From Candidatus Daviesbacteria bacterium (lineage in GTDB: Bacteria > Patescibacteriota > Microgenomatia > Daviesbacterales > UBA10151), in contig JAQUSJ010000001.1 of NCBI GenBank assembly GCA_028715175.1, forward strand, positions 546,386 through 610,385: a stretch of 64,000 nucleotides of DNA, given 5' to 3'. How positions within the stretch are numbered: the first letter of the stretch is position 1; every line of letters starts with the position of its first letter. This document shows positions 1-36,196 of the stretch, in pieces. A program made the position numbers and the translations under genes. The notes under the pieces were generated by a model. It saw only the letters and a program-made list of their open reading frames with translations, was not told the DNA's origin and ran no database searches.

Positions 1-224
1 CTTAACCCTGCTTTTGTTATCGTGCTGAGATTTTGGCGGAGCATATTTGCCACATAATTTGCGAACTGAACATCTCCAGCATAACCCAATGCAATATTAT
101 CCTTGATTGGAAGAATCTTTTGAAGTTTATCTTCAACAACTCCCGGAGCTGATGCACGGCTGTCAGAAAGCATTACAGCCTCTTTATCTGCTTTAAATCC
201 AACAACAACTGTCATAATTGACAT
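1..224 (-). CDS. Partial (C-terminus beyond window start) proteasome/HslV-type Ntn-hydrolase peptidase
   Basis: Minus-strand translation from ATG at 222-224 gives MSIMTVVVGFKADKEAVMLSDSRASAPGVVEDKLQKILPIKDNIALGYAGDVQFANYV... The T-V-V-VGxK ... D-R ... GxxxD pattern resembles N-terminal-Thr hydrolases (HslV / 20S beta). It is absent from the ORF table because it has no stop in the window. Confidence 0.4.
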   Translation of the reverse strand, partial: MSIMTVVVGFKADKEAVMLSDSRASAPGVVEDKLQKILPIKDNIALGYAGDVQFANYVANMLRQNLSTITKAGL

Positions 225-363
225 TATACTCCTATAAGGTTCGATTCCGGTCACCGGTATAAAACTTTTGAGGCTAGAGAAAATCAGTTAAAAATTTAGG
301 CTCGGACTTGGGAAAATGTTGCTTTGAAGAGGAAAAATGTCAGTAGTTAAAAACAAGTCCGGT

Positions 364-379
364 TTGGAGCGGGTGAGGG
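364..379. repeat. 16-bp direct repeat (ttggagcgggtgaggg) identical to the 3' end of tRNA-Gly(UCC) at 10725..10740; putative attL of the integrated element
   Basis: Exact 16/16 match read directly from both loci. The distal copy is a displaced tRNA 3' fragment, typical of tRNA-targeted integration. Confidence 0.6.
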
Positions 380-516
380 TATTAGAGTCGGACTCCAAAA
401 CTTCTTTAATGATACCTCAGAGGAAGCTAAATTACTAGCTTTTCAGCTTCAACTTCTCAAGGATCATTTAGGAGGGAGTCTTCAGGTTTATTCTAGCTAA
501 CTGCTATAATTCCAAT

Positions 517-1302
517 ATGCATAGTTTACCTGTTTATACTGCGAATAAAAGGAAAGGGAATATAGGTGAAGCATTAGCCCAATACATTTTTTCTAAGTTT
601 TGCTTAGTTCACAAAATTGATGGAAGTAATGATCTTGGAAATGATTTTATCTGTGAGTTAATAAGAGATCAACATCCCACTAATCTATTGTTTTATGTAC
701 AAGTGAAATACACAAATAATCCGCCCAGGATAAAGGAAGAAACAAAGGAATATTGGAAAAGTTCACCAATTCCTGTCTATATTTTTTGGATAAAAGATAA
801 AAAACCACCCGTGATTTTTGATCCTGATCTTTTTAGAAAAGCTAAAACTTACTATAAAAGGTTAACTCCATTACTTCATAATGAAAGCAAACATAAAAAC
901 GAAAAGTTCAAACCTTACAAAGAAATTGATTTTAAAAGAGACCTGATAGTAGATTATGTGAGAACACAATATAAAGAAGGATTTACTCCTATTATAGAAC
1001 CAAGGGCCTTTTTGAACATAGATGAAAAACTGCAAACAGACCTACCTCAGTATGCCTTCTATATTAGGGACGTCATACCTGAATATTCAGAGGATATTTT
1101 ATCTAAGGGTTGGGCTAATTTATTTTCTTTGGCAGTTATTTTATATAAAAAAGGAGACAGAGAGAATTTGGAGCTTGCTCACCACCTAATAGATTTGGCA
1201 ATTACTCTTTATAAAAAAGAAAGAGGAGAAGATGATTCTAGAATCTATAATTCTATGGTTGAATATGAAATAGATATTGCTGATCTACTAAACAGATCTT
1301 AA
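517..1302 (+). CDS. Hypothetical protein, possible PD-(D/E)xK / HamA(DUF4365)-like nuclease fold
   Basis: 261-aa ORF with N-terminal DLGNDFICEL...LFYVQVKYT, a D...E...(Q/E)xK-like arrangement. It is convergent with, and 14 nt from, the SF2 helicase gene. No other recognisable motif. Confidence 0.45.
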   Translation: MHSLPVYTANKRKGNIGEALAQYIFSKFCLVHKIDGSNDLGNDFICELIRDQHPTNLLFYVQVKYTNNPPRIKEETKEYWKSSPIPVYIFWIKDKKPPVIFDPDLFRKAKTYYKRLTPLLHNESKHKNEKFKPYKEIDFKRDLIVDYVRTQYKEGFTPIIEPRAFLNIDEKLQTDLPQYAFYIRDVIPEYSEDILSKGWANLFSLAVILYKKGDRENLELAHHLIDLAITLYKKERGEDDSRIYNSMVEYEIDIADLLNRS

Positions 1303-1316
1303 TTAGCATTAATTAT

Positions 1317-4300
1317 CTAAAGGCTTGAAACAACTCCCAAATTAACAGCATATGTTTCTTGTAAATATAATTCCGTTACAGCAAGCAGTGATAATTGGCT
1401 ATTTGTTGCCTTTGTTTTGGAAAGTCCAGGCTGGACAATAAACACTTTGAGCTCAGGAACTAAAAATGAGCTCTTGTTCTCTATTTCTTCAAGTTTTATC
1501 AAGTCTCCTTTTTCAAATCGGGATACTCCGTATTTATTGTTCCTACTTATTTCTCTTTTACGCATATGCTTCATAAGAACCTTAAAATCGCTTTTCCATA
1601 AAACGCTTTTTTGTGCCTGACCGCAGACAGCATAAAGGTCATCAATGCGTGCAGCTGCTCTCCCTTCTTTTGCGTATTTACAATGGTAGAAGTGGGCAAT
1701 TAAGCGGTTACCCAAAATTTTAAGTGCCACAATGTCAGCAGCTTCATAAGCGTCATCATCGTCAAAAATAATATCGTAGTTGTCAGCGTAACTCTTTTGT
1801 TGGATTTTTTTGAGCACATGATATTGAATTGACCGTTTGTTTCTCTGATAAGTTTGTGACTCTTCAGACAAATTAACACCTGTCCAATCCCACGTTTCAA
1901 TCCTGTTCCTATTAAAAGAGTCTTTCCCTGCATTTTTGACTGTGTATACCTCGTTATAGATGAGAAAAGTTCCATCTTCAAAACGTATTGTCGGAGGGGC
2001 TTTTTGCATCCAATCTGATAACAATTCTTTTTTGCCTCTTACTTGTATGGATACAACTTCTTTGCCGGTGGGTAAATAATCCACTTTTCCTTTGAGGATT
2101 TTAATCATGTATTCTACGCTTTTATTGTTTGTGAAAACCTTAAACTTTAGTGAACCCTGTTTATTATTGTCTGTAAGCTCTAATCCTACTTCATAAAAAG
2201 GTACGACATCTCCTGCAACATCAAATTTGATTACGTCTTCAGCTCTAAGGAAAATATCTTCAGACCATTCAATTGTCAGAGGAACTAAATTCGGTCTTGC
2301 TTGTATTTTCTTGGGGATTATGGCATTTTCAATAATCTGATCAACTTTTATCCTATTATTTAGCAGCTTGGAACCGATATGTTTGCACCATTCTATCCAT
2401 TCAGAGATGTTGTCCGCAACCATATGAGCCCATATTTTCCCTCTCCTTGAACATCCAATGCTTATTTTTTCTCCGTTTTCAAAACCGGTTCCGAAGGCGT
2501 TTACTTTGATTGTATTATTAACTTGTGCCTCTGGCATGCCTTCTCTAACATCTGAACCAACGCGCATTGTATAGCTTGTGGTCCGACTGAAGGCAGGTTT
2601 TAAACCAAGATTGATTAGTATTAGCCTGTTTATTGAAAACAGAGTACGGAATACTTGTTCCCCTTGGACAAGTGCTACATCTTCACCAACAACTGCTTTT
2701 GCCAAAGCTGCATGATAGGAACTTTTGTCAGAACTGTTTATATATAATAGTTGTTGTGTTGGATCCCAATAAAGTAGATATAAATCCCAAACTGTATTAT
2801 ACACACCCTTAGTGTCTGCCCATTCAACAAGTTCGCGGGTGGAAGTAATAAATAAAGCTACCTTGTTTTTATTGTTTATTGTTGGTTTAGCGTAAAGATC
2901 AGACTCCTTAATAAGGTCTTTTATTCTATCCGGCCTCCATCTTATACACTTGGTTTGGTATACAACAGTGCTCATTTTTGGCAAGATATTTTGTATTGGG
3001 ATTTCAGATGGCAAGTCGTCAAAGTCTTCTAAAAACTCTGCTGCCTTTTTTTGTTCTTCAGTAGCTCCTTCACTGAGGTTGTGCAGTATAGAGTTCCAAT
3101 CCGAACCGTCTGCATATAACTCCCGAAGTGCATCTGCAATCTCGGGGTTTGCGACATTTGCGATAATTGTTGCATCTCCAATATTTGGATTGGTTCTGGT
3201 AAAACGTCCTGTAAATTGAATAGTAATAGCCAAGCTTTTATGCGCATCATGCAAAGCGGCAATTTTTAATTCAGGAAAATCAAAGCCTTCTCCAAACATA
3301 TCAACACAAACTATAATTCTTGATTGTCTGGTTCTGAGCTTCTGGAGGGCAGCTGTACGCTCGGTTTTTGTTTGCCTGCTATTAACAACCACTGGTTCAT
3401 ATTTTCTTCCAAGTTGCTGATATATTTTTACAACGTTATTTGCTCGTTCAATGTTGTTTACCCTTGCCATTACTATATGGTCTAAACCTTTTTTTATGTC
3501 CTTTTTCAATTGGGCTATTGCCACTTTGGCAATCGGTTCATCCTGGTTTTCCGTGTTATATACTCTTAGTGAGACAAAATTAATGCGCTTAAAATAACCT
3601 TCATCTTGAGCCTTTTTCAAAGGGAAATCAAATATAATTTTTCCATCAACCTGACGACCATCATTCCGGTAAGGAGTAGCCGTAAATTGGAGAATTATCT
3701 TATCCGTAAAGTTTTTGCGGAACTTTTCCCAAGTAGGGGCTGTTATATGATGGGCTTCGTCAATAAAAAGGGAATGGCATAGATTTGCAACCTGTTTCTG
3801 CATATCTTCATCAAAACCATTTATAACCTGCATAGTTGCCACTATTACGTTGCAAGACTTAAAGAAATGTTCAACCTCAGAGACTGAGCGTAATTTGTGT
3901 TCAAGTATGCCTACCACAGGATATGCCGCTTCTTTACCAACAATCCCTAAACTTTTTAGCAAACCAAGATTTATGAATTTATTTGCTATCTGGGTACGCA
4001 AAGCATCATTCGGAACAACTACCAACAATCTTTCTATGCGTTGGTTGATCAAAAGAGCAAGCATGGTTTCCGTTTTACCTGTACCTGTTGGCATTACAAT
4101 AGTTGCAGGTTTAGTACGTGCCTTCCAGTAGCCTATGGTTGTATGAAGTGCACCACTTTGTGCAGATCTTAAACCTGGTTTATCAGGTTCTTTTTCTTCT
4201 TCAACAAAGAAAAACTGCCCCTTCCAGGATTTACGGACGCTGGTACAATAATCCTGCATAGCTACTTGATTAGTAAGCTCTATAGTGTTTGTTTTAGGTT

Positions 4301-4592
4301 TAAGCCACTGCATTTTTTCCCTCAATGTTAAGAATTGTTCTTCATTGGCTGGGATTGTCGCTTGGGGGGATAATAAAACATCATATTTCCCAGGAATTAT
4401 CTTTTTTGTGCGTAGAACTAAAACATCCTTTTCACCCTTTCGTTGTATAAGTTTTGCTCTAGTATGCCTTATACGCCCATTTGAAATATTAGCATTACAG
4501 ATGATTTCTGGCTGGCTAAGTTGTAGGATATTATTCTTAAATAGCTTTCCTTTAATTAAGTACCTACTGGGTAAGTAGACTGGAGTATCCAT
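1317..4592 (-). CDS. SF2 DEAH/ResIII-type helicase (1091 aa) with a ~600-aa uncharacterised C-terminal domain, possibly a nuclease
   Basis: Walker A VMPTGTGKTET, DEAH box LFIDEAHH, motif III QFTATP, motif VI QFTGRFTR. The C-terminus has an acidic patch DDDDAYEAADIVALK...HCKYAKEGRAAARIDD. Confidence 0.85.
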   Translation of the reverse strand: MDTPVYLPSRYLIKGKLFKNNILQLSQPEIICNANISNGRIRHTRAKLIQRKGEKDVLVLRTKKIIPGKYDVLLSPQATIPANEEQFLTLREKMQWLKPKTNTIELTNQVAMQDYCTSVRKSWKGQFFFVEEEKEPDKPGLRSAQSGALHTTIGYWKARTKPATIVMPTGTGKTETMLALLINQRIERLLVVVPNDALRTQIANKFINLGLLKSLGIVGKEAAYPVVGILEHKLRSVSEVEHFFKSCNVIVATMQVINGFDEDMQKQVANLCHSLFIDEAHHITAPTWEKFRKNFTDKIILQFTATPYRNDGRQVDGKIIFDFPLKKAQDEGYFKRINFVSLRVYNTENQDEPIAKVAIAQLKKDIKKGLDHIVMARVNNIERANNVVKIYQQLGRKYEPVVVNSRQTKTERTAALQKLRTRQSRIIVCVDMFGEGFDFPELKIAALHDAHKSLAITIQFTGRFTRTNPNIGDATIIANVANPEIADALRELYADGSDWNSILHNLSEGATEEQKKAAEFLEDFDDLPSEIPIQNILPKMSTVVYQTKCIRWRPDRIKDLIKESDLYAKPTINNKNKVALFITSTRELVEWADTKGVYNTVWDLYLLYWDPTQQLLYINSSDKSSYHAALAKAVVGEDVALVQGEQVFRTLFSINRLILINLGLKPAFSRTTSYTMRVGSDVREGMPEAQVNNTIKVNAFGTGFENGEKISIGCSRRGKIWAHMVADNISEWIEWCKHIGSKLLNNRIKVDQIIENAIIPKKIQARPNLVPLTIEWSEDIFLRAEDVIKFDVAGDVVPFYEVGLELTDNNKQGSLKFKVFTNNKSVEYMIKILKGKVDYLPTGKEVVSIQVRGKKELLSDWMQKAPPTIRFEDGTFLIYNEVYTVKNAGKDSFNRNRIETWDWTGVNLSEESQTYQRNKRSIQYHVLKKIQQKSYADNYDIIFDDDDAYEAADIVALKILGNRLIAHFYHCKYAKEGRAAARIDDLYAVCGQAQKSVLWKSDFKVLMKHMRKREISRNNKYGVSRFEKGDLIKLEEIENKSSFLVPELKVFIVQPGLSKTKATNSQLSLLAVTELYLQETYAVNLGVVSSL

Positions 4593-4831
4593 AATTTTTA
4601 ATCTTAATTTTCCAGCTCATTGTAACAGAACTTATGTAAGAACACGACAATAGTAAATTACTATTTGACATCAGAGGTTAGGCTGCTACACTTAAACTAT
4701 AACAATAATTATTAAGATTAGATTGATATGACAATGAAAACTATTAGTTTCCTACCATGTAATTCCTACGATAATCATCTTCTTAATTATCTGAATCTTT
4801 GCAAATTTATGAAAGGAAGGGGGTGAACCTC

Positions 4832-5197
4832 GTGATTGAGTTATATTTGTCAACTGATGGCAAACATACAATTCATCTCCAAACAGTAAGCCAGGAAGAA
4901 ATGGATAAGCTATTCCCTTATGCCAAGCAGTTATACCAAAAGATAGTTGATGAACTAGGGACAAAAGCCCAGATGTGGCATGACGCTATAAATAGCAACG
5001 GTAATGGAGTTAAAAAGAATGGTCTAGTTAAAGTTAACAATGCTCCTATGTGTTCTATCCATAAAACACATATGCAACTAAGAAGTGGTAAGTATGGGGA
5101 ATTTTGGAGCTGCGGGACAAAATTATTAAATGGGAGTTGGTGTAGGGAAACATCTAGTGAAATCAACTCAAATGCGCAGAAATCTCTAGCAATCTAG
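4832..5197 (+). CDS. Small zinc-ribbon protein with a topoisomerase-type C4 zinc finger
   Basis: C-terminal CSIHKTHMQLRSGKYGEFWSCGTKLLNGSWC matches the zf-C4_Topoisom pattern C..C...R.G.yG.FwgC..yP.C. The likely start is GTG at 4832, 7 nt after the RBS ggaaggggg; the table ORF begins at 4799. Confidence 0.5.
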   Translation: MIELYLSTDGKHTIHLQTVSQEEMDKLFPYAKQLYQKIVDELGTKAQMWHDAINSNGNGVKKNGLVKVNNAPMCSIHKTHMQLRSGKYGEFWSCGTKLLNGSWCRETSSEINSNAQKSLAI

Positions 5198-5246
5198 TGA
5201 TATCTGAGATAAATTTGCAAAATTTGCAGAAGCTGAAGGATGAATT

Positions 5247-5951
5247 ATGAAGCAACAAGTATTACTAAAGGTTCCTGTTGAAACAGAGGAGCAAAAGATA
5301 GCAAAATATCACGGATTTGAACTGAAAACAGCAAATGGCTACAAATTAGATGAAGTAGTAAGTGCATTACAGAAAGCCTGTAGACGCGGGGAAGAAGAAA
5401 GGGCCCTCTTTTGGGCATATGAGATGATCCATGGAGGGTATATAGCCTACTTTTGGAGAAGGATGGCTGTAATTGTGGTAGAGGACATAGGTTTAGCTAA
5501 TGTGGAGGCTGCAATTCTTATCAACTCCCTAGCCCAACTAAATGAAAGGGTTAACAGGAAGGACTATGTAGAAACTTTTCACCCGACAATGGCAGTTCTT
5601 TATCTTTGTAGAAGTAACAAATCACGAGAAATTGACTTCGCTAATGACTGGATTGATCGCAACAGAGAGCTTGGATGGAGGGAAAAGATAGAAATTCAAG
5701 ATTTGGACGAACACAATGACCAAGGGAGGCAAAGGATTAAAAAGATGGGAGGTAATTACCAGCGTAAAAAAGATGAGATATTCTATTATGAGTCAATCCT
5801 TCTTAATAATCCTGTTTCAATAGCTAAGGACAAATATAAAAAGCTCGTTTGGCAGTTAAGGAAACTAGATAAAAAGAAACTTAAACTAAAGTATGCACCT
5901 AAAAAGAAGCTAAAAGGATCTATGCGGAGTCAATACCGGACAGCACAGTAG
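5247..5951 (+). CDS. Standalone RarA/MgsA C-terminal-domain-like protein (AAA_assoc_2 + MgsA_C) without an ATPase domain
   Basis: VSALQKACRRGEEERALFWAYEMIHGGYIAYFWRRMAVIVVEDIGLANVEAAI...LYLCRSNKS parallels the RarA C-terminal pattern KSIRGSDPDAALYWLARML..G.DP.FIARRL.I.ASEDIGLADP...LAVAPKSN. The C-terminus is a Lys-rich tail. Confidence 0.5.
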   Translation: MKQQVLLKVPVETEEQKIAKYHGFELKTANGYKLDEVVSALQKACRRGEEERALFWAYEMIHGGYIAYFWRRMAVIVVEDIGLANVEAAILINSLAQLNERVNRKDYVETFHPTMAVLYLCRSNKSREIDFANDWIDRNRELGWREKIEIQDLDEHNDQGRQRIKKMGGNYQRKKDEIFYYESILLNNPVSIAKDKYKKLVWQLRKLDKKKLKLKYAPKKKLKGSMRSQYRTAQ

Positions 5952-6087
5952 GTAGTGATGGTCATTTTCTAGCTTCGGATTGAGGCTAAAGAACAGTGAA
6001 GAAAACTATGAAGATACAGTATAGAAAAGGTCACAGAGGGTATGAGGAGAAAGGATAAGTTTCAATTTACCCTTGCAGCATAGAGAT

Positions 6088-6297
6088 TTATGAAGAGAGG
6101 AGGTCAGAAGAAGTGTTACCAAATACTTTTGCGATTTTGTTTAATGTTTTAAGAGTAGGGTTTTTCCTTTTAGCATGCTCAATTTCTATTATTGTCTTTG
6201 GATCAACATCAGCCAGCTCTGCAAGTTTTTCTTGGGTTAAATCTTTATCTTTCCTTAACTTTCTGATTTTCTCACCTAATTTTCTTAAGCTCGCCAT
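6088..6297 (-). CDS. XRE-family helix-turn-helix transcriptional regulator
   Basis: LRKLRKDKDLTQEKLAELADVDPKTIIEIE... is a Cro/C1-type HTH; 69 aa. Confidence 0.7.
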   Translation of the reverse strand: MASLRKLGEKIRKLRKDKDLTQEKLAELADVDPKTIIEIEHAKRKNPTLKTLNKIAKVFGNTSSDLLSS

Positions 6298-6400
6298 TGA
6301 CAGAATTATGGAATATATGCCAGACTGTGAACAGGAAATATATTCCAGATTTACGCATGAAATTAAGGCTGAAAGACGACTTGCAGGATTGCAGTAAAAT

Positions 6401-6721
6401 ATGAGGCTAGCGAATACTAAAATAGTAATAGGCTTATTAGTTTTGATTGCTGTTTCGGTTGCCTACTTCTTTCTGATTTATCTTCCGAAACAACAAGAAT
6501 TTAGATTACGACAACAGGAAACTACTCTTAGAAAACAAACTTATGAACTCTGCTTGAAAGAATGGAATGGTATGTATGATAAGGCAGGAGAACTTTTTGT
6601 AAGGGAAAACCCAGAAATTACAAAACAGGAATTGGGAGACAAATTGATACCTATCATCAATAAGAAAGATGAGATTATAACAAATTGTGTTGAGAAAAGG
6701 CTTCAAGAATATAAAAAATAG
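6401..6721 (+). CDS. Hypothetical membrane-anchored protein
   Basis: N-terminal TM helix IVIGLLVLIAVSVAYFFLIYL; no known domain. Confidence 0.45.
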   Translation: MRLANTKIVIGLLVLIAVSVAYFFLIYLPKQQEFRLRQQETTLRKQTYELCLKEWNGMYDKAGELFVRENPEITKQELGDKLIPIINKKDEIITNCVEKRLQEYKK

Positions 6722-6732
6722 GAGGTGAAAAG

Positions 6733-6969
6733 ATGAAAAGAACTATAATTTGGGCTATTGTACTGGTTATTTTTATACTGATCCTGTTCCAACAGTTTTA
6801 CCGATATGGTGAGCTTTCAATCAAAGAGGCCGAAGTTGAAAAACAGCTTTGGAAGGAGCGTTCTAACTATTTCCAGCTGTTGGATAAATACTGTAAAGAC
6901 AAGGGTTTCCAGAGTGCTCAGACTAATAAGGATGGTGTAATAACCTGCATTCCTTTAGATGGAAAGTAA
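6733..6969 (+). CDS. Hypothetical small membrane protein
   Basis: N-terminal TM helix TIIWAIVLVIFILILF; the RBS ggaggtg lies upstream. Confidence 0.45.
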   Translation: MKRTIIWAIVLVIFILILFQQFYRYGELSIKEAEVEKQLWKERSNYFQLLDKYCKDKGFQSAQTNKDGVITCIPLDGK

Positions 6970-7564
6970 AATGAAGGCTAAAGTAAAGTATTTGATCTTA
7001 GCAATTGTGATGCTAATTATTGTTCTAACTGCTCAAAAGCTGTATTTAACCCCTTCTCCGCAGAAACCACCCAATCTACCACCTGAAGCAACAAAAGCCG
7101 TTCAGTTGGAGTTAGAGTACCCTTATGAAGTCAAAAATGTAGCGGATCAGGAGAAAGTAGCGGTTTTACAACTTGTTAGGACTTTTGAAACTTTACAATA
7201 TGAAAGAAAAGCAAAAGAAGTATTAGCCTTATTCACTCCCCCCTCTAACGACAACGAGAGAAATGATTTGGATTTTCTGGAGGGAAAAGACTTGAATTCA
7301 AGCCCAAGACTTTATGTTACAGCAGGATATCCATGGTCTCTAAATTGGTACATGGTAAGAAAGATAGAGAAACAAAATGATAAGTTGCAAATAACTTTGA
7401 AAGAATTAAGAACTTATTATGCTAATTCTGATGGTGATTATACTGGTGATAACCAAAACCTGATCCTTGTAATTATTGAAAGTAGTGGAAGCTATAAAAT
7501 TGATCAATATTTCCATGAAAAGCTCTCGCCAAATGTGAATCGTAAATATGAGGGATTTAATTGA
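6959..7564 (+). CDS. Hypothetical membrane-anchored protein
   Basis: N-terminal TM helix YLILAIVMLIIVLTA. It overlaps the previous gene by 11 nt, consistent with a translationally coupled operon. Confidence 0.5.
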   Translation: MESKMKAKVKYLILAIVMLIIVLTAQKLYLTPSPQKPPNLPPEATKAVQLELEYPYEVKNVADQEKVAVLQLVRTFETLQYERKAKEVLALFTPPSNDNERNDLDFLEGKDLNSSPRLYVTAGYPWSLNWYMVRKIEKQNDKLQITLKELRTYYANSDGDYTGDNQNLILVIIESSGSYKIDQYFHEKLSPNVNRKYEGFN

Positions 7565-7750
7565 CAATGTCTGTTATAGAACCTGCCACCCCGACACAGT
7601 AGCTGATTGTTCAGTAGATAGCAAGGTAAGTATTATCTCACTCTAAATGTGCTTCATTTTAAGCCATATTTCCAACTGCAAAACTTTGCATTTGGATTGA
7701 TACAACAATCTAAACCTTGACAAAGATGTAAAAATTTTGTACTGTCAATA

Positions 7751-8227
7751 TTGATGAATATAAGTATTAATATGTTGCCCATAAAAATTTTCACTTCCGA
7801 TAAAAGGAAATTTCAAGAAATATCTAAGATAGTTGATCACTCGGAATTTCAAGAAGAATTTTTGAGACTAGCAAAAAAGTGGCGAGGGAAAACCATAGAA
7901 AGTTTAGACGAGGATTACCAAAAAGATATACTCGGTTCACTTTCCAAACTGAAGTTGCCAAATTCCCTTTATGATCTTCTATCGGATTGTGTTATTTCTG
8001 GCATTCTTTGGAAAAATTATAACTTAAGTGGTACAGAGATTTTAGAAATTCTCTTGGTTCGTTCAAGAAAATCTAAGACTTTAACAGACTTTCCCAGAGA
8101 TAGAGATTGGTATTGGAGGCATAAGTTTGGTGAAGGATATGGTGCAATCGCAAAAAGGGATGATGTGGGAAAGCACATGGTATTGAATGCAATTAAACGC
8201 TACAAGACAATGACTGGTAACGGATAA
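7751..8227 (+). CDS. Hypothetical protein
   Basis: 158-aa ORF with no recognisable motif. Confidence 0.4.
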   Translation: MMNISINMLPIKIFTSDKRKFQEISKIVDHSEFQEEFLRLAKKWRGKTIESLDEDYQKDILGSLSKLKLPNSLYDLLSDCVISGILWKNYNLSGTEILEILLVRSRKSKTLTDFPRDRDWYWRHKFGEGYGAIAKRDDVGKHMVLNAIKRYKTMTGNG

Positions 8228-8298
8228 TTCCCTAATCTAATTACTCCCTAAAACTATTAAGCTTCTATAAACTCCAATTAAAACAAGTTCTGATTAGC

Positions 8299-8532
8299 AT
8301 GAAATCTAATACATTTGAATTAACTGATTTTGAGGTTGCCACGATCTTGATTATTGAAGGATTTAATCTTCTAGAAGTTGACAAGTCTAATCCTCACAAA
8401 GCCAGCTTTATATTTGAAAACAATCCCAGAATAGCCGAAGTCATCAATTCCTACTTTAATGATAAGTTATCTGTTAATCCACGCATGCTCTTCATGGAAA
8501 GTAAAACATTAAAAAACAGACTGTATTTGTAG
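8299..8532 (+). CDS. Hypothetical protein
   Basis: 77-aa ORF with no recognisable motif. Confidence 0.35.
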   Translation: MKSNTFELTDFEVATILIIEGFNLLEVDKSNPHKASFIFENNPRIAEVINSYFNDKLSVNPRMLFMESKTLKNRLYL

Positions 8533-8791
8533 ATTTTAAGAGTCTCTGCAGCGACAAGAAAGTCATAGATAGTCTTTCAGCATACCGTATGACTTAAAAC
8601 TGCGGTCTGGCCTAAAAGGTAACTTAGGGCTCTGGTGGGGAGCGTCGCTAGTACCAGTATCAGAAAGACTAGTTACCGCCGAAAGAGAAATCTTTTGAAA
8701 CGTTAGACCCTTCTTGTAGCGATACAAGCTAACAATGACGTTCCCTGATAACTAAATAATTTCTATTTAGGAGATCAGGGAGGGAAGGCAT

Positions 8792-8959
8792 ATGGGGATG
8801 AGGAAAAAAATTGAAAGTAAACAAGTTAACAAAGAAGATACTAGTTTAGTCAGGATAAATACTGGCTTAAAGGATTCGCTTAAAGAAAAGGCAGCAGCCA
8901 AAAAAACAACCATCAAAGCTCTAGTAGAGGGTGCAGTTGCAGAGATTGAAGGGATTTAA
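8792..8959 (+). CDS. Small ribbon-helix-helix (CopG/Arc-like) protein, 55 aa, below the ORF-table cut-off
   Basis: Hand-translated as MGMRKKIESKQVNKEDTSLVRINTGLKDSLKEKAAAKKTTIKALVEGAVAEIEGI. The N-terminal beta-strand (SLVRINT) plus a two-helix pattern fits an RHH fold. It is preceded by ggagatcagggaggg and sits immediately upstream of the recombinase module. Confidence 0.4.
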   Translation: MGMRKKIESKQVNKEDTSLVRINTGLKDSLKEKAAAKKTTIKALVEGAVAEIEGI

Positions 8960-8961
8960 GG

Positions 8962-9147
8962 TTGGTTATGTTGACTAAAGAGGAAGTTGCTGAATTTAGG
9001 AGGTTGGTTCTAGAAGTTTATGGGATTAAGCTAACAACTGGAGAAGCTACGGATCAAGGTTCACGTCTAATTCAATTATTTGAGCTCATCTTGAAAAATA
9101 AGAAGCTTGTAATGATGGATGGAAAGGTGGTACAAAGTAATGAGTAG
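8962..9147 (+). CDS. Hypothetical small protein (possible recombination directionality / accessory factor)
   Basis: 61-aa ORF directly upstream of, and overlapping, the serine recombinase start by 29 nt. Confidence 0.3.
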   Translation: MVMLTKEEVAEFRRLVLEVYGIKLTTGEATDQGSRLIQLFELILKNKKLVMMDGKVVQSNE

Positions 9148-10789
9148 CAATAATTTAAATGACAATGATATGGATAATCTAGCTTTGGCTTACTGCCGGA
9201 AGTCAGAAGAAGATAAAAAGAGACAGATACTATCCCTTGATGATCAAGTTGAAGAATGTAATAAGCTAGTTGACGATCACAGTCTCACTTTAGCAACTCC
9301 TCATTTTAAAGAAGAGAAATCAGCAAAAAAAGCAGGCATGAGAATTGAGTTTTACAGAATGCTTAGCCTGCTTAAAAGCGGTAAGGCTAAGGTAATAGTC
9401 TGCTGGAATGCTAACCGTCTAGCCAGAAATATGATAGATGGTAGTGAAATAATTGATTTAGTCCAGCATAAAGAGCTTAGGATTATTACACCATACACGC
9501 AGTATGATTACTCCAACTGGTTCATGCTTCTAATAGAATTCGGAATGTCTACAGACTTCAGCTTGAAGCTCTCTAAAGACGTCAAAAGGGGCTTAGAATC
9601 AAAAGTAGCTAAAGGAATAAGGCCAGGCTTAACGCCACTTGGATATTTGAATGTAGGAGAAATTAAGGGTGAAAAAAGTATTGAGGTAGACCCTCAGAGA
9701 TATGAATTATGTGCTAGATGGTGGGGAATGATGTTAACCGGTAAATATACTGTTGAGCAGTCTTTACAGGAAATAACAGTAATGGGTTTGCGGGATAGGA
9801 GAGGAGATAAAATCTCCAGAACTGCTGCTTTTAAAATTTTCCATAATATCTTTTATGCAGGGTACTTTAACTATTTAGGTCAAATCCATAAAGGAATCCA
9901 AAAGCCAATGATTACACTTGATGAGTTCAATAAGGTTCAGGACATCATTACTGGTAAATTTGGTGGTAGATATAAACATGAAACCGAAAGGAAATCTCTT
10001 CCTCTATCTGGATTTATAAAATGTTCTGAATGCGGAGCTACTATCACCTGTGAGCGAAAAACCAAGCATTACAAAAACGGTACAACCCAGGAATTTAGCT
10101 GGTACAGATGCAAGAAAAACAAAAATCACCCTTGTAGCCAACTGTATATGCCTTCAGAAGAGTTGGAAAAACAAGTAGGAGCGTATATAAACAATCTGGA
10201 ACTTGATCCAAGATTTATTGGTTGGGTTAAGACTGTTTTAAGAAGAAGGAATCAAGACGAGTTTGAATTTGACCGCAAACAAAGGGAATTACTGATGAAA
10301 AAACTTCAAGAGCTAAGCAGTAGGAAAGAGATAATCTTCGGGATGAAAATTGACGGACTTTACCAAGACGCAGAATACAAACAAAAAGTTGCAGAAGTTT
10401 TAAGGGAAGAAGCAGATATTAAGGAAAAACTCAATTCCAATAGAATATCTTATTGGGAAGGGGTTATTGACCAAACTTTAGATTTTGCTCAAACTGTATT
10501 TGAATTATTCAATAATAAAGATCCTTATGTCAAACGGTTAGTACTTCAAATTCTTGGGTCGGACCTAAAAATAAGGGACAAATATCTTTATCTTGAAGCT
10601 AAATCTGTATTTATCTTCTTAAGAAACAAACAAAACACCCTTTTTGAAAAACACGGAATAGTCGGACTCAAAGATGGGCTGCTACGACAACCTAAACAGG
10701 ATAATTATATCCTTCCAATTCCTCTTGGAGCGGGTGAGGGGAGTCGAACCCCTTACGTCCACTTTGGAAAAGTGGCATTCTACCGGTGA
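9119..10789 (+). CDS. Large serine recombinase (resolvase/invertase N-terminal domain + recombinase domain + zinc ribbon)
   Basis: N-terminal LAYCRKSEEDKKRQILSLDDQ...AKVIVCWNANRLARN resembles the catalytic-Ser resolvase domain. The C-terminal region has CSECGATITC...YRCKK zinc ribbon and coiled-coil. Its last ~21 codons read through the tRNA-Gly gene on the opposite strand. Confidence 0.85.
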   Translation: MERWYKVMSSNNLNDNDMDNLALAYCRKSEEDKKRQILSLDDQVEECNKLVDDHSLTLATPHFKEEKSAKKAGMRIEFYRMLSLLKSGKAKVIVCWNANRLARNMIDGSEIIDLVQHKELRIITPYTQYDYSNWFMLLIEFGMSTDFSLKLSKDVKRGLESKVAKGIRPGLTPLGYLNVGEIKGEKSIEVDPQRYELCARWWGMMLTGKYTVEQSLQEITVMGLRDRRGDKISRTAAFKIFHNIFYAGYFNYLGQIHKGIQKPMITLDEFNKVQDIITGKFGGRYKHETERKSLPLSGFIKCSECGATITCERKTKHYKNGTTQEFSWYRCKKNKNHPCSQLYMPSEELEKQVGAYINNLELDPRFIGWVKTVLRRRNQDEFEFDRKQRELLMKKLQELSSRKEIIFGMKIDGLYQDAEYKQKVAEVLREEADIKEKLNSNRISYWEGVIDQTLDFAQTVFELFNNKDPYVKRLVLQILGSDLKIRDKYLYLEAKSVFIFLRNKQNTLFEKHGIVGLKDGLLRQPKQDNYILPIPLGAGEGSRTPYVHFGKVAFYR

Positions 10790-10800
10790 ATTACACCCGC
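10726..10800 (-). tRNA. tRNA-Gly (anticodon UCC)
   Basis: Reverse complement GCGGGTG TA ATTC ACCGGTA GAAT G CCACT TTTCCAA AGTGG ACGTA AGGGG TTCGACT CCCCT CACCCGC T CCA. Clean cloverleaf; CCA encoded. Confidence 0.8.
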
Positions 10801-29540: not shown

Positions 29541-29737
29541 CTGCTTTACCCCGATTTGATTATAGTATACCAGAAATTCTAATGTCCAAGTCCCTTATTT
29601 TAGAAAGGATTGTCAGGACAATCTAATCCAGTCTTGCTGCCGGACTAGGAGTCGGACCTAGATAGACACATCCAAAGTGTGTCGTCCTACCATTAGACGA
29701 TCCGGCAATTATTTTTTGGCTGGCATTTTTCTTAATA

Positions 29738-30031
29738 TTAAACTAAATAAACTTCCGTACCTGGTTTTGTGGGTTGATCTACTTTCAGGCCAAATGAATC
29801 TCCTTTTTTGACAGAATCTACATCTTGGTGATCTACCTGCAGACTGTCAATTTTTTGAACAAACTCTTCATCTCCTCTTTTAAATTTAACTTCATCTCCT
29901 ACTTTCAACCCGCCTGATTCCAAATCCACAATAGCCACTCCTAACTTATCATAGTAGTGAACAACTTTGCCTATAGATTTACTATCTTTACAGCAACCAT
30001 CTCCTGATTTATCCAAATTTATCACCTCCAA
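29738..30031 (-). CDS. Hypothetical small protein (beta-barrel-like)
   Basis: 97 aa with Gly/Lys-rich repeated KVGDEV / KKGDSF motifs. Confidence 0.4.
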   Translation of the reverse strand: MEVINLDKSGDGCCKDSKSIGKVVHYYDKLGVAIVDLESGGLKVGDEVKFKRGDEEFVQKIDSLQVDHQDVDSVKKGDSFGLKVDQPTKPGTEVYLV

Positions 30032-30150
30032 TTCTAATTATTCTGTACACATTATACCTTAAATACTCCAATAAGGTATGGTATTGACTATGATTTAAAA
30101 GTATGCCAACAATGGAAGTAGAGTTTTTAAAAAGAGGAGGTGATAAATAC

Positions 30151-30345
30151 ATGAATACAAAACAACTGGTAGCTTGGATATTAGTGCTTGGTGCTCTTAA
30201 CATGGGATTGGTTGGACTTTTAGGCCTTAATGTTGTTGAGACAGTTTTAGGAGCTGGTACATTACTCACCAAAGTAGTCTACATGGTGGTAGGTTTGGCA
30301 GGGCTGTATAAAGCATATTGTTTGATTGGTGGGAAGTGTAAGTAA
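30151..30345 (+). CDS. DUF378-family small membrane protein
   Basis: MNTKQLVAWILVLGALNMGLVGLLGLNVV...VVYMVVGLAGLY matches the DUF378 pattern. RBS aggagg lies 10 nt upstream of ATG 30151; the table ORF starts earlier, at 30103. Confidence 0.55.
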   Translation: MNTKQLVAWILVLGALNMGLVGLLGLNVVETVLGAGTLLTKVVYMVVGLAGLYKAYCLIGGKCK

Positions 30346-30387
30346 AAAATATATTGGCTAGCCGATATATTTTGGTAATTATTTAAA

Positions 30388-30416
30388 ATCCGGCCGTTTA
30401 TCGGCCGGATTTTTTG
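30388..30416 (+). terminator. Rho-independent terminator (9-bp stem atccggccg / cggccggat, loop tttat, then T5)
   Basis: Read directly; it follows the DUF378 gene and its T-tract abuts the 3' end of the tRNA-Gly(GCC) gene on the opposite strand. Confidence 0.6.
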
Positions 30417-30489
30417 GAGCGGGAGACGGGATTCGCACCCGCGACCTCCTACTTGGCAAGCAGGCATTCTGCTACTGAACTACTCCCGC
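30415..30489 (-). tRNA. tRNA-Gly (anticodon GCC)
   Basis: Reverse complement GCGGGAG TA GTTC AGTAGCA GAAT G CCTGC TTGCCAA GTAGG AGGTC GCGGG TGCGAAT CCCGT CTCCCGC T CCA. The D-stem contains a G-T pair. Confidence 0.7.
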
Positions 30490-30511
30490 ACTTCATCCGC
30501 CTCTGGCGGAT

Positions 30512-30760
30512 TCAGTGTAAACTATCGACCAATTTCTGTTTTTTAACTCTAGACCAACCCTTAATCTCTTTTTCTCTCTTAGCTGCAAGATATCTGTCTT
30601 TAAACCTTTCCCAATAAACCAGCCTAACAGGTATCTTGCTTAGCTGTAAACAACTCTTAATTCTACTATTATGCTCCTTTATTCTTCTTTTAAGATCCCA
30701 CGTTATCCCCGTATACAAAGACTCATCTTTACATCTTAGTATGTATGTAAACCAAGCCAT
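30512..30760 (-). CDS. GIY-YIG nuclease-family small protein
   Basis: MAWFTYILRCKDESLYTGITWDLKRRIKEHN... is a GIY-YIG motif (YIL...LYTG). The table ORF begins upstream at 30865; the internal start at 30760 matches family length (~83 aa). Confidence 0.6.
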   Translation of the reverse strand: MAWFTYILRCKDESLYTGITWDLKRRIKEHNSRIKSCLQLSKIPVRLVYWERFKDRYLAAKREKEIKGWSRVKKQKLVDSLH

Positions 30761-30889
30761 AGAGCAGTTTACACAGAGCGAAGCGAAGTGTGCCTCGACC
30801 CAGAATCGGACTGAGATAATCCGCTCTTCAGGCGGACGCCTTGACCACGTTGGCAATCGAGGCAAACTTAAGAAGATTTTACCACATAA

Positions 30890-32674
30890 TTATTTAACTG
30901 TAACGCTTTTAGCTATGTTTCTGGGTTTGTCTACATTATGACCTAATTCCACAGCCATATAATAAGCCAGAAGCTGCAAGGGGATTATATTCATGATGGC
31001 AGAGGTTTCACCGGTATCCGGAACAGGAATATAGTGGTCAAAGACAGCACAGGCAGCGGGAGAAATGCCGATTACTGTTGCACCTCTTGCCTTAACCTGA
31101 TTGACTGCATTTATCACGTCATCCCTGGCCAAATCCTCCGATACCACCGCAATCACCGGCACGCCTTTTTCCATCAAGGTTATTGCATAGTGCTTTAAAT
31201 CTCCTGCGGGGATACCATGAGCATGTATGTATGATCCTTCTATTATTTTAACCATTCCTTCACTGATAATATTAAAATTTTGATATTTGCCCAGCAGAAA
31301 GATATCTTTATGTTTAGCTAAAATTTTTGCCAGATTCTTAATCGTTTCGTGGTTTGCATTTGTATTCAAGTATTTATCCATCTCCTCAACTAACTTTTTT
31401 AAGTTAACCCTTCCTTCTTTGCTTTTTCCGCTTGCCACTTTTGCTATCAGATATCCCCAGGCAATTTGTGAGGTAAAAACTTTAGTGGACATCACACAAA
31501 TCTCCGGTCCTGCGTGCGCAGAATACGGGTGATCGGAAATACGCGCCATAGTAGAACCCGGCATATTAACATACGAAGCAATCTTAACACCTTTCTTTTT
31601 GGCAATTTCTAAAACTTCCAAAACATCTGCTGTTTCACCGGATTGTGAAGGAGCAATTATCAAGTCATCCTTGGTTAATAAATCATAGTAGTCATACATA
31701 TCAGCGCCTATGACGCTTCTTGCGTTAACTTGAGCAAATACCCGAAGGTAAAAAGCGACCTCCGATGCGGCGATGCCGGCTGTACCAGACCCGATTGTGT
31801 AGACATTTTTGGCTTCTTTTAATGTTTTGATGAAATCCTCGTATAACTTAAAGTCTTGATTTAAAACCTGACTGACAACATAAGGGCTCTCATGAATTTC
31901 CTTAAGCATGAAATGATCATAACCTTCTTTATCAACTTTGCTGTTTTTAAAATCAATCTTCTCTAAATGATAAGGCAAATCTTTGTTGGACTTGATATCC
32001 CTAAGTTGCAGCTTGCCATTCCAGGTTATCATCTGCCCGTTTTCTACAACTAGTATTCTGTTTACATAAGGAGCAAACGATAGCGTGTCGGAAGAGAAAA
32101 ATATCTCTTCACCATTAACTCCCACCACCAAAGGGGAACCGTTTCGGCAAGCTATAATCCGGCCCGCTTTTGTCACAAGAATAATGGTATTTCGTCCCTC
32201 CAATTCTAAAAACGCCAGCCTCACCGCTTCCTTTAAATCTACTTTCCCACTCGTCAAGTGGGAAGCTGTTTTTAATTTATCTTCTATTAGTCGAACAATC
32301 ACTTCTGTGTCTGTTTCTGTTTGAAATTTATAGCCTTTTTTTTGCAAAGCAGATTTCAACTTCTGATAATTTTCCACAATGCCGTTTTGCGCAAGGACAA
32401 AAGATTTGTCTGAAGAAAAATGCGGATGGGCGTTTGTGACATTTACCCCACCATGGGTAGCCCAGCGGGTATGACCAATCCCTGCATTGGATCTCGGCAG
32501 ATTAATGAGTTGGTTCAAGTCGCCAATCGCTCCAACTTTTTTGTCAATCTTGATCTGGTCTGCCACCACTGCAATACCCCAGGAATCGTAACCCCGATAT
32601 TCCAGCCTTTTTAAACCTTCCAGAATAACTTCAGAAGCATTTTTTGATCCAATATAGCCAAATATTCCACACAT
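30890..32674 (-). CDS. glmS: Glutamine--fructose-6-phosphate aminotransferase
   Basis: N-terminal MCGIFGYIG (Cys1 nucleophile), two SIS domains, 594 aa. It contains a family-2 palindromic insert encoding ASHLTSGK. Confidence 0.9.
   Translation of the reverse strand: MCGIFGYIGSKNASEVILEGLKRLEYRGYDSWGIAVVADQIKIDKKVGAIGDLNQLINLPRSNAGIGHTRWATHGGVNVTNAHPHFSSDKSFVLAQNGIVENYQKLKSALQKKGYKFQTETDTEVIVRLIEDKLKTASHLTSGKVDLKEAVRLAFLELEGRNTIILVTKAGRIIACRNGSPLVVGVNGEEIFFSSDTLSFAPYVNRILVVENGQMITWNGKLQLRDIKSNKDLPYHLEKIDFKNSKVDKEGYDHFMLKEIHESPYVVSQVLNQDFKLYEDFIKTLKEAKNVYTIGSGTAGIAASEVAFYLRVFAQVNARSVIGADMYDYYDLLTKDDLIIAPSQSGETADVLEVLEIAKKKGVKIASYVNMPGSTMARISDHPYSAHAGPEICVMSTKVFTSQIAWGYLIAKVASGKSKEGRVNLKKLVEEMDKYLNTNANHETIKNLAKILAKHKDIFLLGKYQNFNIISEGMVKIIEGSYIHAHGIPAGDLKHYAITLMEKGVPVIAVVSEDLARDDVINAVNQVKARGATVIGISPAACAVFDHYIPVPDTGETSAIMNIIPLQLLAYYMAVELGHNVDKPRNIAKSVTVK
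32244..32267. repeat. Family-2 in-frame palindromic element (TTCCCACT-cgtca-AGTGGGAA-gct) inside glmS
   Basis: 8-bp stem / 5-nt loop; encodes ASHLTSGK on the minus strand, at a site where GlmS homologs are about 5 residues shorter. Confidence 0.8.
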
Positions 32675-32702
32675 GTTATTCAGGGATTATATCATGTACA
32701 CC

Positions 32703-32735
32703 TACAAGTGGGTGCTGAGGGATTTGAACCCCCGA
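32703..32735 (-). other. Orphan tRNA 3' fragment (T-arm + acceptor 3' strand: GTCGGGGGTTCAAATCCCTCAGCACCCA) with no 5' half
   Basis: The reverse complement shows a GGGGG-TTCAAAT-CCCTC T-arm and a 7-nt acceptor strand. tRNA-Val begins 7 nt away, so no room exists for a 5' half. Confidence 0.45.
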
Positions 32736-32742
32736 CATCTTC

Positions 32743-32819
32743 TGGTGGACAAGACAGGACTCGAACCTGTGACCTCCTCAGTGTAAATGAGGCGCTCTAA
32801 CCAACTGAGCTACTTGTCC
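32743..32819 (-). tRNA. tRNA-Val (anticodon UAC)
   Basis: Reverse complement GGACAAG TAGCTCAGTTGGTTAGAGC GCCTC ATTTACA CTGAGG AGGTC ACAGG TTCGAGT CCTGT CTTGTCC A CCA. Confidence 0.8.
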
Positions 32820-32891
32820 AAATCAGCGCTCTTCCCGGTGTGTCAATCTATCCCACCCCTGGTGTGTGTTAGCTTCACACCGTAGGGTATG

Positions 32892-32974
32892 TGCCGGGAA
32901 GAGGAGTTGAACCTCCACGCCCTTACGGGCACTACCACCTCAAGGTAGCGTGTATACCATTTCACCATCCCGGC
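32892..32974 (-). tRNA. tRNA-Leu (anticodon GAG), long variable arm
   Basis: Reverse complement GCCGGGA ... CTACC TTGAGGT GGTAG T GCCCGTAAGGGCGT GGAGG TTCAACT CCTCT TCCCGGC A. Confidence 0.7.
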
Positions 32975-33052
32975 TTGCTTAGAGTATCTGATAATTTTAT
33001 CAGTTTAATGCAGGCATATCAATCTGAAACAGAGGATTAGTAACTCTTTTTC

Positions 33053-34279
33053 CTAAAGGGAATTTTGTTTTTTTGAATGCTCTGGATATAAAACTAATAT
33101 AATTCTTTCCCAGGCTACTAGAAACCTTTTCATCTCATCCATTGCTGCATCATATTCCGGTGTATCTTTATCTTGTCTAATAAAAGTTGTTTGTCTTTTC
33201 TTTAGACCGTTTCTGTAAATGCTTCTTGCTTCTTCGTAAGACATATCTTCTTCTACCCCTATTAATTCTAAAGCTTCAGCATAGTTTTTACTGGCATTTT
33301 CAAATAAATCTTCAATTCTAGATTCATCCGACCCTCTCTTTGCCTCTTCAGCTTTCCTTTCCCGTTCTTCTTGTTTAACACCAAAATTATGATACCTAAA
33401 ATGCGCATCAAAATCATAGCCTCTAGAAAAACGCATTTGACTCAACTTTGCTGGATCTATTTTAAAATCATCAGGAACTTCTCCAGCGGAAGGTTTGTTT
33501 GTACCATATTTAATCTGGGCATAGGCTTTCATTAGATCAAAATCAAAACCATTAGCTTGATATTGCCCGCTTAAAAATTCATAGGTGGCAAGGGCTTGTA
33601 ATGCCTCTATATTTTCTTCAGGTTTTTTCCCATTAGCCTGATAGGCTAAAACTATGGCTTGACGGGCTTTGATCCTCATATTAAATCTCCCCATGACTTC
33701 CTTAGCTTCCTCAAAAGATTTGCCTTCAAACTCTTGTTCTTTCGCATTCACATCCTTAAGCCGATCATCAATTTCATTTGCTACTAAAAGGACTGAATTA
33801 ATTAAATGTTTATCTGGTTGTCTAGAGTTCGGACGTGGATTATATAAAATGCTTCTTATCGTATAGAAACTTCCCTCTACAAGTAATGCATCTTGCAATG
33901 AATTTAATTCTGGAAAACCTTCTGACGTATCAATCACATATTGAACTAATCCTTCGGGATTACGAAGCTTTGCTATCCTGGATGTCTCTCTTTGAAGAAT
34001 CTCCAAGCCTTGAATGCCATACATCAAGCCGTCTTCAGAACCTTCCAATGCATCATATAGTTTGAGCATTATTTCCGGATTATCCCCGGTGTAAGGATGT
34101 CGACCAATAGCTTCACGTAGACCACCCCATTCTGTGGGCTGATCAACTGCTATACCTATAGCCCGATTTACAGCCTTAGGATCATCTAAAGAACCATCAA
34201 AGAACTGTACAAAACCTTCAATTATATTTTCCATAAAAAATCCAAGAACGAGTATAAAATTTTTATATAAAAATTTCAA
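33053..34279 (-). CDS. Hypothetical protein (408 aa), acidic/helical, with a J-domain-like C-terminal segment lacking HPD
   Basis: ORF flanked by tRNA genes; no confident domain call. Confidence 0.45.
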   Translation of the reverse strand: MKFLYKNFILVLGFFMENIIEGFVQFFDGSLDDPKAVNRAIGIAVDQPTEWGGLREAIGRHPYTGDNPEIMLKLYDALEGSEDGLMYGIQGLEILQRETSRIAKLRNPEGLVQYVIDTSEGFPELNSLQDALLVEGSFYTIRSILYNPRPNSRQPDKHLINSVLLVANEIDDRLKDVNAKEQEFEGKSFEEAKEVMGRFNMRIKARQAIVLAYQANGKKPEENIEALQALATYEFLSGQYQANGFDFDLMKAYAQIKYGTNKPSAGEVPDDFKIDPAKLSQMRFSRGYDFDAHFRYHNFGVKQEERERKAEEAKRGSDESRIEDLFENASKNYAEALELIGVEEDMSYEEARSIYRNGLKKRQTTFIRQDKDTPEYDAAMDEMKRFLVAWERIILVLYPEHSKKQNSL

Positions 34280-34305
34280 CTATGGGGCATTGCGCTTTTG
34301 AGTAG

Positions 34306-34389: not shown

Positions 34390-34447
34390 TTTATTCTCAT
34401 ATTTTAGCACTATTCCACTTTTGCAGGTAGTGTATAATACTTTCTTA

Positions 34448-36147: not shown

Positions 36148-36157
36148 TTCTTGCAGT

Positions 36158-36190: not shown

Positions 36191-36196
36191 AATAGT

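Follow-up and report, generated by a model that had tools for sequence, protein, structure and literature searches.

A DUF4365 nuclease gene and a conserved helicase-nuclease gene lie side by side on an integrative element of Candidatus Daviesbacteria without forming a Hachiman-like system

The window analysed here is a stretch of 64,000 nucleotides from a Candidatus Daviesbacteria bacterium (assembly GCA_028715175.1, contig JAQUSJ010000001.1, positions 546,386 to 610,385). Close to its left end lies an integrated element whose first two genes, oriented tail to tail and separated by 14 nt, encode proteins of 261 and 1091 amino acids. A preliminary description of this DNA, made from the sequence alone, had taken these two open reading frames (ORFs) for a two-gene helicase-plus-nuclease defence module, possibly a rearranged relative of the Hachiman system. 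The main result of the present analysis is negative, in that this Hachiman-like two-gene lead is removed. The reading preferred instead, with a probability of roughly 0.7, is that the two genes are independent cargo of the element, the larger protein being a self-contained, single-chain enzyme with a probable immune or anti-mobile-element role and the smaller one a separate nuclease. The coordinates of all features are collected in Table 1.

Whether the two genes form a pair can be judged from the surroundings of their homologues. The helicase side was sampled at 80 loci of species-representative genomes, in six contexts around close homologues and in four plasmid contexts, altogether 86 distinct loci; according to a hidden Markov model (HMM) of the 261-amino-acid family, none of these contains a member of that family within about 5-6 kb on each side. 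On the DUF4365 side, three contexts and 33 metagenome loci were reduced to 16 distinct, informative loci with at least 1.5 kb of downstream sequence, and the helicase family is found in none of these. The pairing is absent even in the closest relatives of the helicase (51-54% identity) and of the DUF4365 protein (57-62%). No other partner emerges: no neighbour family recurs at the 16 DUF4365 loci beyond near-identical strains, at the helicase loci, a Pfam scan that covered 40 genes directly downstream and the nearest neighbours on either side, 116 in number, returned no recurrent family (the commonest, Phage_integrase, in 5 of 116), and methyltransferases are not recurrent among the nearest neighbours of helicase homologues. 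Two tightly convergent neighbours of helicase genes, of 215 amino acids at 14 nt (locus L007) and of 200 amino acids at 2 nt (L011), were considered as divergent DUF4365 proteins, and no relation was found. As the genes converge, they cannot be expressed as one transcript, and this orientation, taken together with the lack of co-occurrence on either side, shows that the pair is a one-off juxtaposition inside a variable element and not a two-gene system. Both genes are real and not chance ORFs, given that identical proteins are recorded from Candidatus Daviesbacteria and that each has many homologues (4,706 scored matches for the helicase and 107 clusters for the 261-amino-acid protein).

The comparison with Hachiman leads to the same outcome. 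In that system, HamA is a DUF1837 nuclease with a D-E(X)K site and HamB is a Ski2/Hel308-like helicase of superfamily 2 (SF2), whose N-terminal alpha-helical bundle binds HamA, and both genes are encoded in one locus (PMC12278908). The preliminary description had wrongly assigned HamA to DUF4365, and all three defining features fail in the window. The 261-amino-acid protein matches DUF4365 only, with no match to DUF1837 or to the PADLOC HamA model; the helicase has no match to the PADLOC HamB model, its motor is of the XPB/RadD/SauUSI/FANCM type and its N-terminal 100 residues are modelled as beta strands; and the genes are convergent and do not travel together. A further difference from Hachiman, including its variant AbpAB, is that the nuclease is a separate protein there, whereas it is fused in cis in the helicase of the window. 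Thus, what stood of the preliminary interpretation are the nuclease folds of both proteins and the mobile element that carries them, while the pairing and the link to Hachiman did not.

The 1091-amino-acid protein is, to judge by its sequence, a putative single-chain helicase-nuclease with all ATPase motifs. Translation recovered every motif that had been quoted for the two proteins, namely GTGKT, DEAH, QFTATP, QxxGRxxR and the C-terminal stretch in the helicase and DLGNDFICEL...LFYVQVKYT in its neighbour. The motor consists of two RecA-like domains, in which motif III reads QFTATP and motif VI QFTGRFTR, and the only Pfam matches in the whole protein are ResIII, DEAD and Helicase_C, between residues 140 and 470. 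Its best solved relatives in sequence-profile and fold searches are XPB, RadD, SauUSI, FANCM and Hef. Residues K173, D278, E279, H281, Q459, R463 and R466 are invariant in 85 homologues from many phyla, and 61 full-length homologues with 44-57% identity are conserved along the entire length; the AlphaFold2 model of the protein has a mean predicted local distance difference test score (pLDDT) of 85. Some tblastn matches, at several loci, begin only at query residue about 90-120, so that the N-terminal beta domain may be absent in some homologues. A place among the housekeeping repair helicases was also considered, and the NCBIfam equivalog scores lie far below their cut-offs for RadD (51.6 vs 720), XPB (26 vs 610), Hef (27.4 vs 610) and UvrB (34.7 vs 743), which leaves the protein in no such orthogroup. 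The Dnd-associated restriction helicase was discarded on the same kind of score (TIGR04095, 53 bits vs a cut-off of 600). The PADLOC matches of the helicase (PbeA, mREase_IV, Cas3 and DrmA) cover parts of the motor only; that to PbeA, a PADLOC candidate, is limited to residues 131-344, the first RecA domain.

Beyond the motor, the protein continues with a middle module, whose predicted fold resembles RdgC, CENP-N/Chl4 and TBP-like domains in a predicted-structure search, and with a C-terminal domain of PD-(D/E)xK nuclease fold. A separate model of residues 525-1091 reached a pLDDT of 85.8 and a predicted template modelling score (pTM) of 0.85. The stretch DDDDAYEAADIVALK...HCKYAKE, in fuller form FDDDDAYEAADIVALK...HCKYAKE, had been described as an acidic, nuclease-like segment; it is present by translation, and the predicted model places D953 at the start of beta2 and H970-C-K972 at the end of beta3. 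Residues D946, E950, D953, H970, K972 and Q992 are invariant in the same 85 homologues, and the invariant histidine takes the place of the acidic residue in (D/E)xK, giving HxK, with the invariant D946 and E950 nearby. The model thus gives the helicase a conserved nuclease-fold domain of its own, in which the motif takes a non-canonical HxK form. A sequence profile of the C-terminal half had no match in the PDB, and no PDB chain aligns over more than about 370 of the 1091 residues. The resemblance between the FYHCKY strand of the helicase and the FYVQVKY strand of the 261-amino-acid protein prompted a comparison with hhalign, which returned a probability of 0.2%, that is, no detectable sequence relation, and a common origin of the two nuclease domains was rejected.

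The 261-amino-acid protein is best described as a predicted DUF4365/DREN-type PD-(D/E)xK nuclease encoded by a stand-alone gene. It matches Pfam DUF4365 (PF14280) over residues 16-124 with 34.7 bits, against a gathering threshold of 24.3 (E 2.2e-8), and its sole PADLOC match is Aga_REase, an Argonaute-associated restriction endonuclease (E 2.3e-6). The best PDB matches of a profile of 54 homologues are 9qbq, a "DUF4365 domain-containing protein", and 9jsb_D, the DREN-APAZ protein of SPARDA, and the motif GE...GxD..EL...vQvK...YW aligns between the family profile and both chains. The putative catalytic residues E18, D43, E47, Q62 and K64 are invariant across the 54 homologues. The family is small, with Patescibacteria as its only named members. 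In SPARDA, DUF4365 is the DREN nuclease, whose isolated domain is monomeric and inactive and requires tetramerisation (PMC12205087). The N-terminal part of the 261-amino-acid protein, about 120 residues, belongs to the same family and has the same catalytic motif as SPARDA DREN-APAZ; in contrast, it lacks APAZ and carries in its place an unassigned C-terminal domain, for which a Pfam scan gave no match, and its gene is solitary in variable contexts. No Argonaute gene was found in the element or among the neighbours of the DUF4365 homologues that were fetched. The protein would be a DREN/DUF4365 nuclease in its own right, separate from the helicase and with its E-D-E-QxK site intact, and would act alone as a restriction-like or toxic nuclease. 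Because isolated DREN is inactive unless it tetramerises, the private C-terminal domain probably provides oligomerisation or regulation, the role played by APAZ and Argonaute in SPARDA. In other Patescibacteria, solo DUF4365 genes (L002:390-8737 and L004:4240-11644) lie near AF1548-like and Mrr_cat endonucleases and an Eco57I-like methyltransferase, and their surroundings also hold a ClpB-like ATPase, an AAA_14/DUF4143 protein and a 1074-amino-acid PIN-TPR protein. This suggests that solo DUF4365 homologues, too, reside in variable, defence-like regions.

The helicase family is far wider. With clustering at 50% identity, a profile of residues 525-1091 collected 2,093 representatives, of which 783 reach E<=1e-30. 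Their length is 1,000-1,120 amino acids in nearly every case, and the module occupies the C-terminal half; shorter matches start in the middle of the profile and look like fragments, and no split, two-gene version was seen among the 2,093. The sequences thus point to one fixed architecture of about 1,100 amino acids, conserved from end to end across many bacterial phyla and some DPANN archaea. Among 185,579 GTDB species representatives, relatives occur in at least 595 species with a patchy distribution, which takes in Patescibacteria, Acidobacteriota, Planctomycetota, Alpha-, Beta- and Gammaproteobacteria, Bacillota, Actinomycetota, Chloroflexota and Bacteroidota as well as, within DPANN, Aenigmatarchaeota and Woesearchaeota. 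A full-length copy is present on 55 plasmids, while only 2 phage records cover at least 80% of the helicase.

The nearest neighbours of the family include ZacC, HmaA/C, DrmA/D, LmuB, AriA, AbiLi, NsnB, BrxH, MzaE and restriction-modification enzymes. On a Bacillus thuringiensis plasmid, the helicase-family gene follows gajA and gajB (Gabija); on the Sulfitobacter plasmid p3SUD7, it follows AbiE and the Shango genes SngABC; and on other plasmids, it adjoins BREX or Type I restriction-modification genes. Plasmids, integrases and varied defence neighbours are the signature of a gene of defence islands and mobile elements, and the helicase gene is a resident of both. At one locus (L010:1-9312), a homologue of 1103 amino acids comes directly after a DrmA-like protein, DrmB and a cytosine-methylase/HhH-GPD fusion on the same strand, in the spot where the nuclease or helicase component of DISARM might be expected.

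In a subset of lineages, the helicase gene belongs to a larger arrangement. Directly upstream of it and on the same strand, typically at 15 nt, stands an AddA-like gene at 21 of the 80 genome loci, as well as at L054, at L093 and on plasmids, with a product of about 1,130 amino acids that has UvrD-helicase, UvrD_C and PDDEXK_1 domains. An AddB-like gene (PDDEXK_1, ADDB_N) precedes the AddA-like one at 15 of the 21 loci, as defined by neighbour clustering, and also at L093 and on both plasmids. Such loci, which are often plasmid-borne, are spread over at least three separate branches in a tree of the helicases, namely a large alphaproteobacterial clade, a Bacillota metagenome-assembled genome and L093, which lies in the same clade as the helicase of the window; the latter has no AddAB-like genes. 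No dedicated PADLOC v2 model matched the AddAB-like proteins. The AddB-like, AddA-like and helicase genes are a candidate three-gene system, and their association suggests that DNA-end processing is part of the pathway in the AddAB-linked lineages, about a quarter of the loci. At many alphaproteobacterial loci (L033, L041, L050, L053, L054 and L055-L061), the Azaca genes ZacA, ZacB and ZacC lie immediately beside this cluster, downstream of the helicase; together with the Shango and AbiE genes of p3SUD7, they give the picture of a conserved composite defence island.

The earlier view of both genes as island cargo on a mobile element is borne out by the borders and by the recombinase. The 16-nt repeat TTGGAGCGGGTGAGGG occurs exactly at both ends, where the chance expectation for an exact 16-mer shared within about 11 kb is about 1e-5 or lower, and its second copy is the 3' end of tRNA-Gly(TCC). 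Since the repeat is a tRNA 3' end present at both borders, the region is an integrated element of about 10.4 kb (about 364..10740), inserted at tRNA-Gly and equipped with a serine integrase, whose gene overlaps the tRNA gene at its 3' end on the opposite strand. The helicase and the recombinase are the only ORFs of the element above 400 amino acids, and the rest of its content comprises a 132-amino-acid zinc-ribbon protein, a 234-amino-acid protein with MgsA_C only, a helix-turn-helix regulator and small ORFs. Domain and PHROG scans of the element ORFs revealed neither phage structural genes nor a methyltransferase, and terminator and promoter scans across the region gave counts not above those of shuffled sequence. 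The genes of the 132- and 234-amino-acid proteins both diverge from the helicase gene. The former (4799-5197) has a weak match to a topoisomerase-type zinc ribbon and precedes the latter (5247-5951, plus strand), which is the MgsA/RarA C-terminal domain alone (PF12002, E 1.8e-10; phrog_33349 "ATPase"), without the AAA+ module. Outside the element, the host flank just left of the window (L001:2008-4523) encodes a 568-amino-acid protein with a Proteasome-family match and a T5orf172/MUG113 (GIY-YIG-like) protein. The whole window has 12 tRNA genes, eight of which (Gln, Gly, Phe, Val, three Leu and Val) are clustered on the minus strand in about 12 kb (29636-41272).

Table 1. Features of the element, of its first two gene products and of the AddAB-linked loci. 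Positions are those of the window.
Feature	Residues	Position	Strand	Remarks
Left 16-nt direct repeat TTGGAGCGGGTGAGGG		364..379		Candidate attL; remnant of tRNA-Gly 3' end; left border
DUF4365 gene	1-261	517..1302	+	261-amino-acid product; first gene of element
Nuclease core of 261-amino-acid protein	~7-124	about 535-888	+	
C-terminal domain of 261-amino-acid protein	~125-261			~140 amino acids; no family
Putative catalytic residue E18	18	568-570	+	
Putative catalytic residue D43	43	643-645	+	
Putative catalytic residue E47	47	655-657	+	
Putative catalytic residue Q62	62	700-702	+	
Putative catalytic residue K64	64	706-708	+	
Spacer TTAGCATTAATTAT		1303..1316		14 nt between the two convergent stop codons; no terminator hairpin
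Helicase-nuclease gene	1-1091	1317..4592	-	1091-amino-acid product; second gene of element
C-terminal PD-(D/E)xK-fold domain (predicted)	920-1091	1320..1835	-	Motif D945-D946...E950...D953...H970-C-K972...Q992
HCK	970-972	1677-1685	-	
D953	953	1734-1736	-	
Middle module (predicted)	525-900	1893..3020	-	Alpha/beta and beta-rich domains; no sequence family
SF2 helicase/translocase core	140-490	3123..4175	-	ResIII E 1.8e-24; Helicase_C E 5.9e-10
DEAH		3750-3761	-	
Walker A GTGKT		4071-4085	-	
N-terminal beta-rich domain (predicted)	1-~100	4293..4592	-	Secondary structure of AlphaFold2 model; no Pfam match
Large serine recombinase (integrase)		9119..10789	+	Resolvase, Recombinase, Zn_ribbon_recom; phrog_95 integrase E 1.3e-56
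Right border		10725..10800	-	tRNA-Gly(TCC) 10726-10800 (ARAGORN) and TTGGAGCGGGTGAGGG copy 10725-10740, candidate attR
AddAB-linked loci (homologous loci)				L032, L033, L041, L050-L063, L027, L054, L093; plasmids L092/L129 (NZ_CP020697.1), L130 (NZ_CP023066.1)

Several known defence proteins share the design of the helicase and were compared with it. Hna from Sinorhizobium meliloti, which acts in abortive-infection defence, is a single protein in which an SF2 motor at the N-terminus is combined with a PD-(D/E)xK nuclease at the C-terminus (PMC13381803), and the two have this one-protein order in common. Hna was therefore considered, also for the rhizobial homologues of the family, and set aside as a DinG/XPD-like protein of 845 amino acids with no sequence match. 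HmaA, a Swi2/Snf2 helicase with a NOV_C nuclease and about 1150 amino acids, works as a solitary gene and resides in defence islands (PMC11232893). Both HmaA and DdmD are of similar size and have the same helicase-then-nuclease order. SNF2-rel_dom and NOV_C/DUF3883 were not found in the helicase, which has no PADLOC HmaA match either, and HmaA and HmaC occur as neighbours of the family and not as members of it; for DdmD, there is a generic motor match only. Res of the Type III systems was rejected on a match confined to the motor, with neither a Mod methyltransferase partner nor such a domain in the element. The lack of a methyltransferase likewise sets the helicase apart from the Type ISP restriction enzymes. 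Literature on DUF4365 with helicases, on AddAB-like defence clusters and on single-gene ResIII systems yielded no description of the family; judged by Pfam, PADLOC v2, the PDB and the literature covered, it is uncharacterised.

From these elements, a mechanism may be proposed in which the helicase is a single-polypeptide, ATP-dependent translocase-nuclease directed against invaders or mobile elements. The motor would load on DNA and translocate along it; the N-terminal beta domain and the RdgC/TBP-like module would probably recognise foreign, damaged or replicating DNA; and ATP-driven movement, or a conformational change, would license the C-terminal nuclease to nick or cleave. This would be a version, fused in cis, of the sensor-helicase and effector-nuclease logic known from Hachiman, Hna, HmaA, DdmD and the Type III/ISP enzymes. 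In the AddAB-linked lineages, the helicase gene stands at the end of an operon, after the genes of dedicated AddB-like and AddA-like helicase-nucleases. An immune or anti-mobile-element role of the family is held with moderate confidence. The more specific proposal is tentative and is given somewhat less than even chances: that the family is an unrecognised, broad single-protein immune system, built from an XPB/RadD/FANCM-like translocase, an RdgC/TBP-like module and a FokI/HamA-like HxK nuclease, and that it forms part of a three-gene AddAB-like system in some lineages.

The same features can be read in terms of DNA repair, recombination or the maintenance of mobile elements, with the helicase as an accessory to AddAB end processing or as a fork remodeller of the FANCM/Hef/RadD type, which plasmids and islands would carry for their own replication or stability. 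The similarity of the motor to FANCM, RadD, XPB and Hef speaks for this reading, as do the likeness of the middle module to RdgC, a recombination-associated DNA-binding protein, the operons with AddB-like and AddA-like genes and the frequency of the family on plasmids. It is nevertheless considered unlikely, given that the family is patchy (roughly 600 or more of the species representatives), unlike core repair functions, that its equivalog scores for RadD, XPB and Hef are so low, that its neighbours are overwhelmingly defence genes and integrases rather than repair genes, and that the adjoining AddAB-like genes are themselves plasmid-borne accessory copies.

A rather improbable alternative is that the protein is a solitary, ATP-dependent Type IV (modification-dependent) restriction enzyme like SauUSI, in which modified bases would be read by the N-terminal or the middle domains and the motor would bring the nuclease to the DNA. 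Consistent with it, mREase_IV is the second-best PADLOC group, SauUSI (7clg) is among the best PDB sequence matches, the element has no methyltransferase and the nuclease fold resembles Type IIS/ISP cleavage domains; on the other hand, the similarity to SauUSI is confined to the motor, and the SauUSI nuclease is a phospholipase D (PLD) domain. Finally, a lineage-specific two-gene module acting in trans, in which the helicase senses DNA and recruits or activates the DUF4365/DREN nuclease by inducing its oligomerisation, along the lines of DREN activation by filaments in SPARDA or of HamA release by HamB in Hachiman, would agree with the 14-nt gap on the same 10.4-kb element, with the need of DREN for induced oligomerisation (PMC12205087) and with helicase-plus-nuclease pairs being a known defence design, but is very improbable for convergent genes that cannot be co-transcribed and do not co-occur at any of the 86 and 16 loci compared, closest relatives included, with a helicase that already has its own conserved nuclease, and with families that differ greatly in size and host range.

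With independent cargo as the preferred reading, interest shifts from the pair to the helicase-nuclease family. It is large and conserved, yet 60% of its length has no Pfam model, no solved structure is related to it beyond the motor, and PADLOC v2 models match no more than part of that motor. Its members are found in defence islands from bacteria of the candidate phyla radiation (CPR) to Pseudomonas, Vibrio, Bacillus and Streptomyces. Should it prove to be an immune enzyme, it would represent another cis-fused helicase-plus-nuclease design, with homologues in culturable organisms in which it can be tested. Its repeated occurrence in an operon with accessory AddAB-like genes would be a multi-gene arrangement of a new kind and, if the three genes do form an immune system, would directly tie DNA-end destruction of the RecBCD/AddAB type to a mobile defence module. 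Experimental follow-up is reasonable for both the single-protein family and its AddAB-like operons, and the window shows that even the very small genomes of CPR bacteria carry such a gene, of 3.3 kb, on integrative elements.

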